Shown: positions 2,237-5,878 of the stretch, in pieces | How the letters are laid out: each line of letters starts with the position of its first letter | Numbering within the stretch: position 1 is the stretch's first letter | Source of the DNA: a virus | Taxonomy: Duplodnaviria > Heunggongvirae > Uroviricota > Caudoviricetes | Direction: 5' to 3' (one strand) | Virus record (IMG/VR): IMGVR_UViG_2531839473_000007 | DNA length: 5,878 bases | Notes under the pieces: generated by a model | Seen by the model: the letters and a program-made list of their open reading frames with translations, nothing else | The model's database searches: none | Told to the model about the DNA's origin: nothing | Program-made: the position numbers and the translations under genes

Positions 2237-2662
2237 TTGTTTACATCAATTTTTGGGCCTGATTATGATACTACGCAATTCAATAATGGTTGTGCTACAA
2301 GAGTATCTCTTGGATTACTTTCTGAAGGATTAAAAAGAGTGGGGGAAAGAGATATTGTTATTAGTGAAAAATCTCATATCCATTATGGGAAATCAATAGA
2401 GCCCGGAGCTGCAAGATTAAAAGATTTTCTGATAAAAATATGGGGAAATGCAGATTATGTCATTAAATATCCTCTAAGCTTTGACGATGTAAGCTCGGTA
2501 TTAAATGATAAAAAAGGTGTTTATATAATGGTTTATAAAAGACCTGCGGATCATGGTGGTGCTACGGGACATGCTACACTATGGACTGGTAACAGAGCCA
2601 TTGGCGGTAATGACCATGCTGATTCCAGTGCTTTTGCAATCTATTTTTGGGAATTGAAATAA
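2237..2662 (+). CDS. Tae4-like T6SS peptidoglycan amidase effector (papain-like Cys-His hydrolase), catalytic portion. Likely a pseudogene or disrupted gene, because the natural start and RBS lie upstream at 2096 beyond an in-frame TAA.
   Basis: Motifs NNGCATRVSLGL (candidate catalytic Cys) and GHATLWTGN (candidate catalytic His), followed by GGNDHAD, fit the Tae4-family pattern as recalled. Size and AT-rich composition suit an effector cassette. The only in-frame start before the Cys is TTG at 2237, with no RBS. Confidence 0.55.
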   Translation: MFTSIFGPDYDTTQFNNGCATRVSLGLLSEGLKRVGERDIVISEKSHIHYGKSIEPGAARLKDFLIKIWGNADYVIKYPLSFDDVSSVLNDKKGVYIMVYKRPADHGGATGHATLWTGNRAIGGNDHADSSAFAIYFWELK

Positions 2663-3096
2663 TGAAAGCTATATTTTTTATATTCTGTATTTTTTTTATG
2701 GGAAATTCATTGTTATATTCAGAGGCTAAAGCCAGTGAATCAGAAAGTACTCTGGATGATTATAAAATATTTACACTCGCTAAATGCATTACCAGTAATT
2801 ATGAAAAAATGGGGGTTGATTTTACAAAACTACCATTGAAAGATAACACTATGGGATTTATTGATATTGATGCTGGACTCGCTTTTTATCGAAATAAGGA
2901 TAGTGTTTTAGCATCTTTCATTAATAAAAAAACAGGGGGTTTTTACAGGCCAAAACAAACTAGTGGTGATTTAGCATCTTCAAATATGGTTATATACGAC
3001 TGCGTAAATTTTTATCATTCAAAAGAGTTGGGTGTATTTCTAAAAAAAATCATTCATGAGAGGACTGTCGAAATTGAGAGAAACGCACTCGAATAG
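2662..3096 (+). CDS. Periplasmic immunity protein candidate (Tai4-like by synteny) with an N-terminal signal peptide.
   Basis: ATG at 2662 overlaps the upstream stop (TAATG). Signal peptide MKAIFFIFCIFFMGNSLLYSEAKA, then a hydrophilic mature protein of about 120 aa. Sits immediately downstream of the amidase effector, as in effector-immunity pairs. The ORF-track start (TTG 2647) is less plausible than ATG 2662. Confidence 0.5.
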   Translation: MKAIFFIFCIFFMGNSLLYSEAKASESESTLDDYKIFTLAKCITSNYEKMGVDFTKLPLKDNTMGFIDIDAGLAFYRNKDSVLASFINKKTGGFYRPKQTSGDLASSNMVIYDCVNFYHSKELGVFLKKIIHERTVEIERNALE

Positions 3097-3271
3097 ATAA
3101 TTCTGGCGGTGACTTTGTTTTTTTTGGATGCAATGCAATATATAAAAATTGTATTTGTTCGAAAATAATATAAAATATCCGAGAAAAATATCATTCGCTA
3201 TTAAAGTGTCTAAGCGTTTTTACATAAGTACTTTACATCGTTTAGTTTAAAAACGCGGCTATCAATAAATG

Positions 3272-3288
3272 TCGCAAAGGATTTGCGA
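3272..3288. promoter_or_regulatory. Perfect 7-bp inverted repeat TCGCAAA-gga-TTTGCGA about 45 bp upstream of the PAAR start, in an AT-rich intergenic region; candidate operator or promoter element.
   Basis: Palindrome read directly. TTGCGA within it could serve as a -35-like hexamer, with TATACA about 19 bp downstream. No strong assignment. Confidence 0.25.
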
Positions 3289-3331
3289 TATAATTCAATA
3301 TGTAAATTATACAACACATAAGGAAATTTAT

Positions 3332-3616
3332 ATGCCCACAGCAGCCAGACTCAGCGATAAAGGCACCCAGCATGACGGTTATTATGAGACCGCCATTATT
3401 GCAGGCTCCTCCTCCGTCTTTATTGATGGTATGCCCGCCGCCCGTCAGGGCGATCCGCTGACACCGCATTCCAAACCCGACCATCCCCCTCACCCCCGTA
3501 AAATCGCAGGCGGCTCTGCCACTGTCTTTATTGACGGTAAACCTGCCGCCAGAACCGGCGATGCCATTGACTGTGGCGGCGTGGTTATCGGTGGCGGCAC
3601 GGTAAATATAGGCTGA
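3332..3616 (+). CDS. Stand-alone PAAR-domain protein (T6SS spike-sharpening tip), 94 aa.
   Basis: Three PAAR-type motifs (TAARLSD, PAARQGD, PAARTGD) with G/I-rich beta-strand spacers. Shine-Dalgarno AAGGAAA 6 nt before ATG 3332. Stop TGA at 3614-3616. The ORF-track upstream ATG at 3269 lacks an RBS, and the PAAR domain begins at Met 3332. Confidence 0.9.
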   Translation: MPTAARLSDKGTQHDGYYETAIIAGSSSVFIDGMPAARQGDPLTPHSKPDHPPHPRKIAGGSATVFIDGKPAARTGDAIDCGGVVIGGGTVNIG

Positions 3617-3705
3617 TTAATTATCAGGGAGGCTGTATGCCCTCAGAAGGATTACGTTTCACGCTGTCGGTGGCCGGCATTGTGGAGATGGCGACGGCGG
3701 TGGTC
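3612..3705 (+). repeat. Direct repeat copy 1 (about 94 bp, about 90 percent identical to 4898-4987): TGATTAAT junction, Shine-Dalgarno GGGAGG, and the first 23 codons of vgrG.
   Basis: Alignment by eye: gctgattaat..cagggagg..atgccctcagaaggattacgtttcacgctgtcggtggccggcattgtggagatggcgacggcggtggt versus the vgrG2 5' region. Confidence 0.9.
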
Positions 3706-4398
3706 GTAGAGGACGGCATATTTGGAAAAAATACATACGACGCAGTGAAAATATTTCAGCGGTATAATGGGTTAAATGATGATGGCATCGTAGGGCCACA
3801 AACCTGGCGGAAATTGGGTGTTCCTGAACTTTTAACGCGAAGTTCATCAGGCTCTCCCGCCAGCCCTTCTTCGGGGCCATCCCGGAGCCCTTCTGCTGAT
3901 TCAAATGGTACTGTTGCTGAGACTGGTGATGGATTCTGTTTCCCATTCCCTGCACTTCCTGCGAGATCGTGGACAAACGGCGGTCGTCAATTTGGGGCGT
4001 CACGCAGTGGGGGCCGCAGACATGCCGGTTGTGATTTGATATTCCCCCGAGGAACGCTTATTTATGCTGTTGCTGATGGCATATTAGTTCAGCCCCCATA
4101 TCCATTTTACGAAGGTACTTCTGCTGTAGAAATTAGACATGGCAACCTTCTCCTTCGCTATGGTGAAATTATTAATGGGTCATACGTAGGTGGGCAAACG
4201 GTTCAAAAAGGTCAGGTTATTGCTAAGGTAGGAAGGCTGCATTCGGGTTCATCTATGTTGCATCTGGAGATTTATACGAATGCGACCTTATCGGGTGACC
4301 TTACAGATCGCAACAGAGCGCCTTATCAAAGACGTTCTGATGTGACAGATCCTGCCCCATATCTGGATATCTGGAAAAATAACCTGCCTACCCTCTGA
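3637..4398 (+). CDS. Chimeric putative T6SS effector: vgrG-derived N-terminus (23 aa), then a partial peptidoglycan-binding (PG_binding_1-like) motif, a Ser/Pro-rich linker and an M23/LytM-like peptidase domain.
   Basis: N-terminus MPSEGLRFTLSVAGIVEMATAVV matches the vgrG2 start MSSEGLRFTLSVDGIVEMATAVV. DGIFGKNTYDAVKIFQRYNGLNDDGIVGPQTWRKLG matches the second half of the PG_binding_1 consensus. M23-like blocks: HAGCD (HxxxD), GTLIYAVADGILV, VEIRHGNLLLRYGEI, GQTVQKGQVIAKVG, SMLHLEIY, VTDPAPYL. Shine-Dalgarno GGGAGG precedes ATG 3637. Confidence 0.75.
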   Translation: MPSEGLRFTLSVAGIVEMATAVVVEDGIFGKNTYDAVKIFQRYNGLNDDGIVGPQTWRKLGVPELLTRSSSGSPASPSSGPSRSPSADSNGTVAETGDGFCFPFPALPARSWTNGGRQFGASRSGGRRHAGCDLIFPRGTLIYAVADGILVQPPYPFYEGTSAVEIRHGNLLLRYGEIINGSYVGGQTVQKGQVIAKVGRLHSGSSMLHLEIYTNATLSGDLTDRNRAPYQRRSDVTDPAPYLDIWKNNLPTL

Positions 4399-4417
4399 TG
4401 TTTAAGGAATCAATAAA

Positions 4418-4882
4418 ATGTTCAAAAAGATAATACTATTTTTAACGGTGATATCTTCGAGTTTTGTTGTTTGTCTTGCGGCTGATTCAGAAAAGATATT
4501 ATCAGTAGATCCTGTTGTGAATAATTTTGGCGTTGATGAAGTCGTAGGGTTGCCTCATCCTGTTTGTACTTTGAGTCTGGCTGAAAATAATGAGAAACAT
4601 CTTTATAATTATGTTGAGGGCGGTATCTGCCCTGTGGGCGGTGAAAGTTGTCCTTATTCAGCCGTCATAAAACTGAATGGCAAGATGGCGATATTAAAAC
4701 AGATATCGACAAATAAAAATATCAGTTTTTTTAAGAATGATGAGGTATCGATTATCACAACACAAAGCCCAGTTAAAGGAGCTGTGGTGGATGAAGAGGG
4801 TGGTGATGTGAATGCCGTTATTGTAATCAAAACAAAAAATAGCGAAATAAAACTTAATATGTCCGGGTACTGTGGTATTTAA
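4418..4882 (+). CDS. Putative periplasmic immunity protein for the M23-like effector (secreted, Cys-containing, no family recognised).
   Basis: Signal peptide MFKKIILFLTVISSSFVVCLA followed by ADSEK. Four Cys in the mature part (C50, C71, C78, C152). Shine-Dalgarno AAGGA 9 nt before ATG 4418. AT-rich. Immediately downstream of the effector. Confidence 0.5.
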   Translation: MFKKIILFLTVISSSFVVCLAADSEKILSVDPVVNNFGVDEVVGLPHPVCTLSLAENNEKHLYNYVEGGICPVGGESCPYSAVIKLNGKMAILKQISTNKNISFFKNDEVSIITTQSPVKGAVVDEEGGDVNAVIVIKTKNSEIKLNMSGYCGI

Positions 4883-4897
4883 AACCGGGCTATTATC

Positions 4898-4987
4898 GCT
4901 GATTAATCAAGGGAGGTCATATGTCCTCAGAAGGATTACGTTTCACGCTGTCGGTGGACGGTATTGTGGAGATGGCGACGGCAGTGG
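4898..4987 (+). repeat. Direct repeat copy 2: the authentic vgrG2 translation-initiation region and first 23 codons.
   Basis: Same alignment as copy 1; gctgattaat at 4898-4907, GGGAGG at 4911-4916, ATG at 4921. Confidence 0.9.
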
Positions 4988-5878
4988 TGAGCTTCCGTCT
5001 GTACCAGCACCACTGCACACCGTTCATCCTGGATGTGGATATCGCCAGCGGACTGTCTGACCTGACGGCGGAGGATTTTCTGGAGAAAAGCGCGGTGCTG
5101 ACGGTCTGGCAGGGCGACACTGCACAGCGTTACGTCAGCGGTATCGTGACGGAGGTGCAGCTCGGTGAGAACAACGACTGGCAGATGCGTTATTCCCTGA
5201 GCATCAGCCCGCCGCTGTGGCGGGCAGGGTTACGGCAGAACTTCCGTATCTTCCAGCAGCAGGACATCGGGACGATATCAGCACAGCTTCTTGAAGAGAA
5301 CGGGGTGACGGCGTGGATGCCGCTGTTCTATGAGGCGCACCCGGCGCGGGAGTTCTGCGTGCAGTACGGGGAGAGCGACCTGGCGTTCCTGACCCGGCTG
5401 TGGGCGGAGGAAGGTATCTTCTTTTATGAGCGCTGCAGTCAGGAAGGGCCGGAACAGAAGCTGGCGGTGTGTGATGACGTGGCGGGGCTGACGGGAATGG
5501 GGGCGCTGGCGTTTAACCCGGACACGACGACCGGGGGAACGACGGAGTACATCAGCGAGTTTCGTTACCGTGCGCAGATAAGCGTGGCGTCGGTGGAGAC
5601 GCAGGATTATACGTTCAAAACGCCGGGGTGGCCGGGGTACTACAGCCATGCCGGGGAGAGCCTGAACGGGCAGGGAACGCAGTACGAGATATTTGATTAT
5701 CCGGGGCGTTTCAAGGATGAGCAGCACGGCCAGGACTTTGCGCGTTACCAGACGGAAGGGTGGCGGAACGGGGCGGAGACGGCGAGCGGGGTGTGTAACA
5801 CGGCGCGACTGTGGCCGGGAACGCGGTTCCGGCTGACGGGCCATCCCTCAGGGACGCTGAACCGGGAATGGCAGGTTG
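4921..5878 (+). CDS. vgrG: T6SS spike protein VgrG (vgrG2), N-terminal about 319 codons; 3' end beyond the window.
   Basis: Open frame from ATG 4921 to the window end with no stop (translated by hand). Begins MSSEGLRFTLSVDGIVEMATAVVSFRLYQ and continues with VgrG core motifs (TFKTPGWPGYY, FKDEQHGQDFARYQTEGWRNGAETASG). Strong Shine-Dalgarno AAGGGAGG. Confidence 0.92.
   Translation, partial: MSSEGLRFTLSVDGIVEMATAVVSFRLYQHHCTPFILDVDIASGLSDLTAEDFLEKSAVLTVWQGDTAQRYVSGIVTEVQLGENNDWQMRYSLSISPPLWRAGLRQNFRIFQQQDIGTISAQLLEENGVTAWMPLFYEAHPAREFCVQYGESDLAFLTRLWAEEGIFFYERCSQEGPEQKLAVCDDVAGLTGMGALAFNPDTTTGGTTEYISEFRYRAQISVASVETQDYTFKTPGWPGYYSHAGESLNGQGTQYEIFDYPGRFKDEQHGQDFARYQTEGWRNGAETASGVCNTARLWPGTRFRLTGHPSGTLNREWQV

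Follow-up and report, generated by a model that had tools for sequence, protein, structure and literature searches.

What is the role of a small gene lodged between a putative cell wall-degrading effector gene and a vgrG gene? This question is raised by IMG/VR virus record IMGVR_UViG_2531839473_000007 (Caudoviricetes), from which we analysed a stretch of 5,878 nucleotides on one strand (hereafter the window), and more precisely by the open reading frame (ORF) located at positions 4418..4882. The window is 100% identical to a region of the chromosome of Escherichia coli MFDS1022581 (NZ_CP169399.1). A preliminary description, made by reading the sequence without database searches, had proposed that the ORF encodes a secreted protein of no recognisable family that confers immunity to the M23-like effector encoded just upstream. 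Our results support this proposal: in our view, the product of the ORF is very probably the cognate periplasmic immunity protein of an adjacent M23 endopeptidase effector delivered by a type VI secretion system (T6SS); all predictions of the proposal that can be examined in silico hold (coupling to the M23 gene, export, orphan copies, a mobile cassette, and conserved cysteines). On comparative sequence grounds, the gene is real, its product carries an export signal, and it is tightly and anciently linked to the M23 effector family, mostly in T6SS loci. From this we infer direct binding of the effector, an inhibitory surface, and protection of the cell by the small protein. The features on which the argument rests are the following.

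3332..3616, + strand, PAAR spike-tip protein gene directly 5' of the effector gene (RefSeq start; the longest ORF runs from 3269), by annotation and NCBIfam NF033420 (1.9e-47)
3637..4398, + strand, putative cognate effector gene, 253 amino acids, with a truncated PG_binding_1 domain and an M23 peptidase domain and without signal peptide (Pfam PF01551, 4.3e-13; PF01471, 1.7e-12)
4404..4409, + strand, Shine-Dalgarno-like AAGGAA, 8 nt before the ATG of the candidate gene and inside the 19-nt gap that follows the M23 stop codon
4418..4882 (stop codon included), + strand, candidate immunity gene, 154 amino acids including the signal peptide (RefSeq coding sequence WP_000473462.1; homologues; ratio of non-synonymous to synonymous substitution rates, dN/dS, 0.29)
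4418..4480, + strand, predicted signal peptide, residues 1-21, with a KK n-region, a hydrophobic core, and C-L-A before the likely signal peptidase I site
4921..5878, + strand, 5' part of the downstream vgrG (tssI), which runs past the end of the window, by annotation and Pfam Phage_GPD (2.8e-74)

The candidate gene belongs to a conserved family of predicted exported proteins

A single ORF with an ATG start was found at the locus, and RefSeq holds the same coding sequence as a hypothetical protein. The ORF is separated by 19 nt from the M23 stop codon and by 38 nt from the next vgrG start, and the gap between the M23 gene and the ORF is likewise short (19-20 nt) in homologous enterobacterial loci. 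The ORF is adjacent to and co-oriented with the effector gene, as is typical of a T6SS immunity component. A consensus scan, whose counts were near chance, revealed no terminator-like site between the two genes, and the only + strand promoter-like match in that stretch fell inside the ORF itself. The ORF is indeed AT-rich, as initially noted, with a G+C content of 36.3% compared to 49% for the M23 gene and 58-61% for the two flanking vgrG parts. In P0001 and P0004, two relatives annotated with 161 amino acids, the start ATG overlaps the M23 stop codon (TGATG), adding MFKESIK. The run of A before the ATG is one base shorter in the window than in these two, and the 154-amino acid start is the only possible one here because the upstream ATG is out of frame.

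Signal peptides and lipoboxes were judged from hydrophobicity and motif rules, and the cleavage site from the -3/-1 rule. By these rules, the protein carries the Sec signal peptide initially proposed: the N-terminus begins with MFKK and is followed by a hydrophobic segment (12-mer score of 2.32). A refinement concerns the type of processing, as cleavage by signal peptidase I is more likely because a canonical lipobox is absent (V at position -1). Cysteines occur at residues 19, 50, 71, 78, and 152, and since C19 sits inside the signal, within the hydrophobic N-terminal segment (MFKKIILFLTVISSSFVVCLA/A), the mature protein retains four of them (C50, C71, C78, and C152), in agreement with the earlier count. 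An N-terminal hydrophobic export segment was present in all 33 family members, 14 of which also display a lipobox (IAGC, IVAC, IISC, LYSC, and others). The whole family is probably exported, as a soluble periplasmic protein in some members and as a lipoprotein in others, and the rules place all 33 in the periplasm, which is also the site of action of a peptidoglycan hydrolase.

A word-indexed search of 5.8 billion proteins retrieved 10 clusters of homologues, while an exhaustive HMMER profile search of 1.84 billion representatives and a second profile search retrieved 32 and 34 clusters, respectively; a narrower-alignment search for related loci gave four species representatives. Homologues are found in at least 12 enterobacterial and other lineages, including named members in Escherichia, Salmonella (subsp. 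indica, serovars Omuna and Kotte), Pseudocitrobacter, Citrobacter (C. koseri, C. amalonaticus, and C. meridianamericanus), Buttiauxella, Kluyvera, and Lelliottia, and an additional distant clade was encountered only in metagenomes and one genome. The identical window protein is recorded on 75 contigs. The four mature cysteines and E67 are invariant in all aligned full-length members, down to 22% identity, and G68, P72, Y80, A82, and E127 are nearly so. The dN/dS value was calculated against the Pseudocitrobacter orthologue, the least saturated pair, and ranged between 0.2 and 0.4 for other scorable pairs; the ORF is under purifying selection. The earlier impression that no family is recognisable also held: the window protein had no match in Pfam, NCBIfam, or among PDB sequences (the latter searched with the family profile), and a Pfam scan of 27 aligned members at E <= 10 gave nothing meaningful.

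The G+C content of 36% and the lack of a database family might point to a chance ORF in AT-rich spacer DNA. This explanation has a negligible probability and is effectively refuted by homologues that keep invariant cysteines down to 22% identity, dN/dS values of 0.2-0.3, a Shine-Dalgarno sequence, and a structural model with a mean predicted local distance difference test score (pLDDT) of 89.8 (see below).

The small gene is linked to an M23 effector gene across lineages

The neighbourhoods of homologues were read for all retrievable loci and checked by tblastn and ORF extraction. An intact M23 ORF without signal peptide was found directly 5' of the small gene in nine of the 13 informative lineages, and PG_binding_1 was present in eight of these nine. 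The lineages harbouring the pair are E. coli, Pseudocitrobacter, Buttiauxella A111, C. amalonaticus, C. meridianamericanus, and those of loci L023/24, L013, L014, and L021, the last having only the M23 domain, and not PG_binding_1, on record. In L013, L014, and L021 the small protein is just 25-28% identical to that of the window, and the M23 gene is still directly upstream.

The genomic surroundings of the pair associate it with T6SS delivery. In E. coli the order PAAR-M23-ORF-vgrG was observed in eight out of eight distinct places. An hcp gene immediately precedes the pair in Buttiauxella (L005) and in the distant L021, and genes for VgrG and PAAR precede it in C. amalonaticus and in L023/24 (VgrG/PAAR genes flank loci L010-12 and L023/24). 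Most loci have Hcp, VgrG, or PAAR genes nearby, the exception being L013, which displays no T6SS gene within the 12 kb examined. At this locus (L013, 4787-6186), the neighbours of the distant M23 and immunity pair are of housekeeping type (ccmC/D, polyprenyl synthase, HAD, and Fe-ADH); either the effector-immunity locus is an orphan or the module is used here outside T6SS.

The latter possibility, if generalised, would make the small protein an inhibitor or regulator of an endogenous M23 hydrolase, such as an endolysin-like or autolysin module, whose tie to T6SS would be secondary in Enterobacteriaceae. Consistent with this, a PG_binding_1 domain joined to a catalytic domain without signal peptide is also an endolysin architecture, phage endolysins are among the best PDB sequence matches to the N-terminal domain of the effector, and the L013 pair has the surroundings just described. 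However, Hcp directly before the pair both in Buttiauxella and in the distant L021, the fact that no phage genes were seen around any locus, and the commonness of orphan loci for T6SS effector-immunity pairs make this scenario unlikely. Moreover, it would change the delivery route only, since the protein would still be a periplasmic inhibitor of an M23 enzyme.

In other lineages, the small gene was found next to a decayed M23 gene or on its own. Two such cases are the following.

L018 3819-4005; L017 2330-2797, orphan or semi-orphan copies in Lelliottia and Kluyvera

In Kluyvera, the M23 gene is reduced to its last 125 codons and the small gene is kept, and in Lelliottia a frame-broken remnant of the M23 3' end lies beside it. 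The C. koseri orphan (L007-L009, 3998-6462) has no M23 gene and ends a run of small ORFs located 3' of an Rhs toxin gene. A further orphan (L006, 2202-4565), also with no M23 gene, comes after an unrelated 289-amino acid ORF and two DUF1240 genes. Orphan copies and decayed-effector neighbours are the classic behaviour of immunity genes. In Buttiauxella sp. A111, a second, frameshifted immunity copy directly follows the intact one (L005, 8564-9018), and is matched by tblastn to query residues 1-68 and 59-154 in two frames.

The same loci bear on a further explanation, whereby the small protein is an accessory factor needed by the effector, such as a chaperone, an adaptor, or a co-secreted partner. 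Adaptor and chaperone genes often adjoin T6SS effector genes, and the tight coupling of the two genes, as well as the presence of DUF4123 and DUF2169 adaptor genes in the same islands, would fit such a role. Nevertheless, known T6SS adaptors are cytoplasmic and have no signal peptide, in contrast to a family with an export signal in 33 of 33 members, 14 of them lipoprotein-like. Furthermore, the persistence of copies after loss or decay of the effector would make no sense for its helper, and we regard this explanation as very unlikely.

The divergence of the two proteins is also in line with an immunity function. Their identities to the window pair decrease together, with effector/immunity values of 90/77%, 68/57%, 67/51%, 63/47%, 48/28%, and 48/25%. 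The pairwise non-synonymous distances (dN) of the two genes are strongly correlated (r = 0.94), the small protein evolving about 1.5 times faster. This correlation shows joint inheritance and not physical contact, since any co-inherited pair would correlate. Both this co-divergence and the retention of the gene after effector loss are what would be expected of an immunity component.

The pair was acquired as a cassette in E. coli

In the window, the M23 gene and the candidate immunity gene are bracketed by a direct repeat.

3636..3704, + strand, left copy of the direct repeat, 69 nt, corresponding to the vgrG start codon plus 22 codons and encoding the first 23 M23 residues
4920..4988, + strand, right repeat copy, which is the genuine 5' end of the downstream vgrG

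Between the copies, 65 of 69 nt are identical, with a looser likeness continuing upstream over the ribosome-binding site. Residues 1-23 of the E. coli M23 protein are in fact those of VgrG (MPSEGLRFTLSVAGIVEMATAVV), 91% identical to the VgrG N-termini of the source strain (locus L001), and the homology of the window M23 protein to all other effectors starts at residue 22-23. In E. coli PapRG-04-4 and ET350 the site is empty, and PAAR is followed after 20 nt by vgrG (L020, 3012-3400 examined). The flanking repeat and the empty sites in related E. coli indicate that the effector gene and the small ORF were gained together. The insertion removed about 30 PG_binding_1 residues that are kept by all other effector homologues. 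Accordingly, the Pfam match of the E. coli allele covers profile positions 22-57 only, the first part of the domain having been lost to the VgrG-derived segment. The chimeric 253-amino acid M23 allele was present in eight out of eight E. coli places examined.

The mature protein is predicted to form a disulfide-closed β-barrel

The preliminary description had called for structure prediction and remote-homology searches, and we carried out both. AlphaFold2 run on 27 sequences with the mature part only produced a model with pLDDT of 89.8 and a predicted TM score of 0.83; a run on eight sequences with the signal peptide included gave pLDDT of 63. The former model comprises eight β-strands in meander order (48-54, 65-69, 80-86, 89-99, 102-106, 111-118, 128-138, and 143-153 in full-length numbering), arranged into an eight-stranded antiparallel β-barrel. 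C50 is located in strand 1 and C152 in strand 8, the strands that close such a barrel, and the loop from strand 2 to strand 3 has C71 and C78 on either side.

4628..4651, + strand, C71-PVGGES-C78 codons, loop joining strands 2 and 3 and bracketed by cysteines, the family's most conserved segment (EGxICPVGGxxCxY), with a proposed inhibitory role

According to the model, disulfides probably join C50 to C152, closing the barrel between strands 1 and 8, and C71 to C78, stapling the loop. The disulfide stabilisation suggested at the outset would fit cysteines that are both invariant and suitably placed, the pairing itself being deduced from the model. In a meander barrel, loops 2-3, 4-5, and 6-7 lie at one pole together with both termini. 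Given this topology, one pole of the barrel would bring together E67, E127, the stapled loop, and the C-terminal GYCG. In the distant clade, a second cysteine-bracketed loop occurs between strands 6 and 7, just before the equivalent of E127.

A Foldseek search with the model returned no significant match. Structural neighbours include the periplasmic lysozyme inhibitors PliC and MliC and the Adhesin Complex Protein (ACP), and the barrel matches these no better than avidins, OmpW, or designed barrels. Lysozyme inhibitors are themselves inhibitors of peptidoglycan hydrolases. Three features define the MliC/PliC family: eight strands forming a barrel, a disulfide linking strands 1 and 8, and two motifs, SxSGAxY in loop 4 and YxxxTKG in strand 6; ACP has the barrel and the strand 1-8 disulfide only, and neither motif (PMC5507604). 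Our model displays the barrel, and the positions of its cysteines are compatible with such a disulfide. SxSGAxY and YxxxTKG are absent from all aligned members of our family, where the strand 4-5 loop is a short variable turn, and the MliC model (PF09864) matched none of 27 members even at E <= 10. Homology to MliC was also tried directly and rejected: hhalign comparison of the family profile with E. coli MliC gave a probability of 2.9%, with the signal peptides alone being aligned.

Many members are named 'adhesin' in NCBI and UniProt (e.g. A0A0L7AFG6_ECOLX), and the same E. coli protein is a hypothetical protein in RefSeq. No sequence-level support was found for this label, which may come from a fold-level likeness to Neisseria ACP; none of the hallmarks of the latter (sequence homology, lysozyme inhibition, and adhesion) was recovered for the protein.

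The fold and the label could nonetheless suggest an MliC/PliC/ACP-type lysozyme inhibitor or adhesin with a housekeeping or host-defence role, which would mediate adhesion or give protection from animal lysozymes and merely happens to be located in a T6SS island. We consider this highly improbable: besides the lack of any Pfam match in 27 members, the hhalign result, the absence of both motifs, and the non-selective likeness of the barrel, a strict linkage to M23 genes and a patchy strain distribution are unlike a housekeeping role, the whole 3200-5000 stretch being present in only one of 5426 complete E. coli genomes. A relationship to some unrelated housekeeping protein of the periplasm, which the preliminary description had named as a finding that would speak against immunity, was looked for and not found, the only resemblance being the non-selective fold likeness to lysozyme inhibitors. 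Plausibly, the protein works like the periplasmic hydrolase inhibitors MliC, PliC, and ACP, without demonstrable membership in that family.

The M23 effector may have a variant active site

The effectors have no signal peptide in any of the nine lineages, and most of them start with MxATLWMF. Alignment to solved M23 enzymes (9gy1, LytM, and ShyA) showed that the zinc ligands are present (H129, D133, and H209), and that the two other canonical M23 active-site histidines correspond to E177 (RYGEI) and M207 (SMLHLE) in the window protein. The motifs RYGEI and MLH[LF]E were found in every intact effector homologue extracted. Judging from the alignment, E177 and M207 may indicate either a variant active site with glutamate as the general base or an altered activity. 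It is because of these replacements, and of the truncated PG_binding_1 domain in the E. coli allele, that we only infer the toxicity of the effector. The retention of orphan immunity genes suggests natural activity of the toxin family. PDB sequence searches with the effector and a literature search retrieved no solved M23 effector-immunity complex.

A model for immunity against the M23 effector

We propose the following scenario. Having no signal peptide, the effector would be harmless in the cytoplasm of its producer, where it would be loaded onto the PAAR/VgrG spike or into Hcp, and would be injected by a neighbouring cell into the periplasm. There, the M23 domain would cut the peptide cross-links of peptidoglycan. 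The small protein would be exported by the Sec pathway, oxidised, and folded into its eight-stranded β-barrel, and would then bind the incoming effector one-to-one, block its substrate groove, and in this way shield sister cells. The contact surface would be the pole carrying the two glutamates E67 (invariant) and E127 (nearly invariant), the loop C-PVGG-x-x-C, and the C-terminal GYCG. Lineages without the effector would keep the gene as an orphan against attack by others.

A more specific version of this scenario is possible, although we hold it with considerable doubt. In this version, the family would be the first proteinaceous inhibitor dedicated to M23/LytM-type zinc endopeptidases. The rigid loop C-PVGG-x-x-C of the disulfide-stapled barrel would plug the groove and E67, possibly with E127, would be offered to the catalytic zinc, the partner being an M23 variant in which E177 replaces a catalytic histidine. 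Such an inhibitor would have arisen either by convergence with the MliC/PliC/ACP barrels or by very deep divergence from them.

Relationship to known immunity proteins and significance

The candidate shares several features with the periplasmic T6SS immunity proteins Tsi1, Tsi3, Tai4, and TsiV3, namely a gene directly 3' of a co-oriented cell-wall effector gene whose product has no signal peptide, periplasmic export, faster evolution than the effector, orphan copies, and predicted occlusion of the groove. It differs from them in having no sequence relation and in its target, an M23 metallo-endopeptidase instead of an amidase or a muramidase. Tsi3 has been described as PliG-type (PMC5507604). 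With respect to MliC/PliC (PF09864) and ACP, the differences are the absence of detectable sequence homology, the conserved strand 2-3 loop with its own cysteine pair, and a presumed target that is a zinc peptidase and not a lysozyme; in addition, the mature window protein is about 40-50 residues longer than solved PliC/MliC chains.

The nearest precedent, compared by description only, is the SAIDI-1 islet of Salmonella Typhi, whose genes t0732 and t0733 were predicted from synteny to be orphan immunity genes against M23-domain T6SS ORFs, the basis being small exported proteins that, in the T6SS loci of Buttiauxella, Yersinia, and Pseudomonas, are encoded 3' of ORFs with an M23 domain (PMC7400221). 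The M23 matches in that study had weak scores (E about 1e-4) and VgrG/ClpV as neighbours (PMC7400221), and may therefore belong to a different effector-immunity lineage. The logic and the effector class are the same as here. In contrast, the Salmonella members of our family belong to subsp. indica and to the serovars Omuna and Kotte, not to Typhi.

Other M23 proteins put forward as T6SS effectors differ from the present one in architecture. Klebsiella Tke (LysM-SLT-M23) is likewise a candidate M23 T6SS cell-wall toxin, for which no immunity protein has been identified. An Enterobacter DUF3289-M23 protein is an M23 T6SS candidate with a small downstream ORF proposed as its immunity gene. Finally, S. 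arizonae SARI_02625 is an EF-hand-M23-endolysin protein of 1032 amino acids, and SARI_02624 is a 276-amino acid protein.

A full-text literature search found no characterisation of the M23 effector-immunity pair described here. A periplasmic immunity gene beside a cell-wall toxin gene is standard biology, and what would be new is an uncharacterised T6SS immunity family directed against an M23 endopeptidase effector. If this assignment is correct, it provides a defined effector-immunity pair for M23-type T6SS toxins and corrects the 'adhesin' label found on many database entries. Lysostaphin, LytM, and the endopeptidases of cell shape and division are all M23 enzymes, and a small stable protein inhibitor of these enzymes could serve as a tool or a scaffold. 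The orphans in Citrobacter koseri, Lelliottia, and Kluyvera could mark earlier exposure to the toxin and be used as a marker in competition studies.

Genomic setting and other features of the window

In NZ_CP169399.1, the window corresponds to the cargo region of a T6SS cluster, bordered by tssB/C/E/F and hcp at one end and by a DUF4123-DUF3304-Tle1 module at the opposite end, and the cluster around the locus in the source strain (L001) is a full one. Upstream of the PAAR gene, the window comprises the following features.

44-1930, + strand, 3' part of a vgrG gene
2096-2236, + strand, 46-codon ORF
2237-2662, + strand, Tae4 amidase gene
2662-3096 (also given as from 2647), + strand, exported ORF with no family match

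The cargo genes are rich in A+T, the Tae4 pair having 31-36% G+C compared to 58-61% for the vgrG and PAAR genes. The ORF 3' of the Tae4 gene encodes an exported protein of 144-149 amino acids with signal MKAIFFIFCIFFMGNSLLYSEA and no Pfam or NCBIfam matches, neither of which recognised it as Tai4; it is presumably the Tae4 immunity protein. We also considered whether the gene at 4418..4882 could provide immunity to the upstream Tae4, and rejected this possibility: an exported ORF of its own lies downstream of Tae4, and in loci devoid of Tae4 the gene is still found after M23.

The 46-codon ORF and the Tae4 ORF (TTG at 2237) are in the same frame and split only by a TAA at 2234-2236, which looks either like a nonsense mutation that cut a longer Tae4 gene in two or like a re-start. 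In other E. coli strains the gene is called differently, with a 144-amino acid Tae4 in L025 and L032. Downstream of the window in the source strain (L001, 16722-21080), the vgrG that starts at window position 4921 is broken by an IS21 element (istA, frameshifted, and istB), and its gp5-like 3' end is annotated as a separate pseudogene. In L025 and L027, two other E. coli loci, an intact 743-amino acid vgrG product is encoded at this place, followed by DUF4123, three DUF3304 genes, and Tle1.

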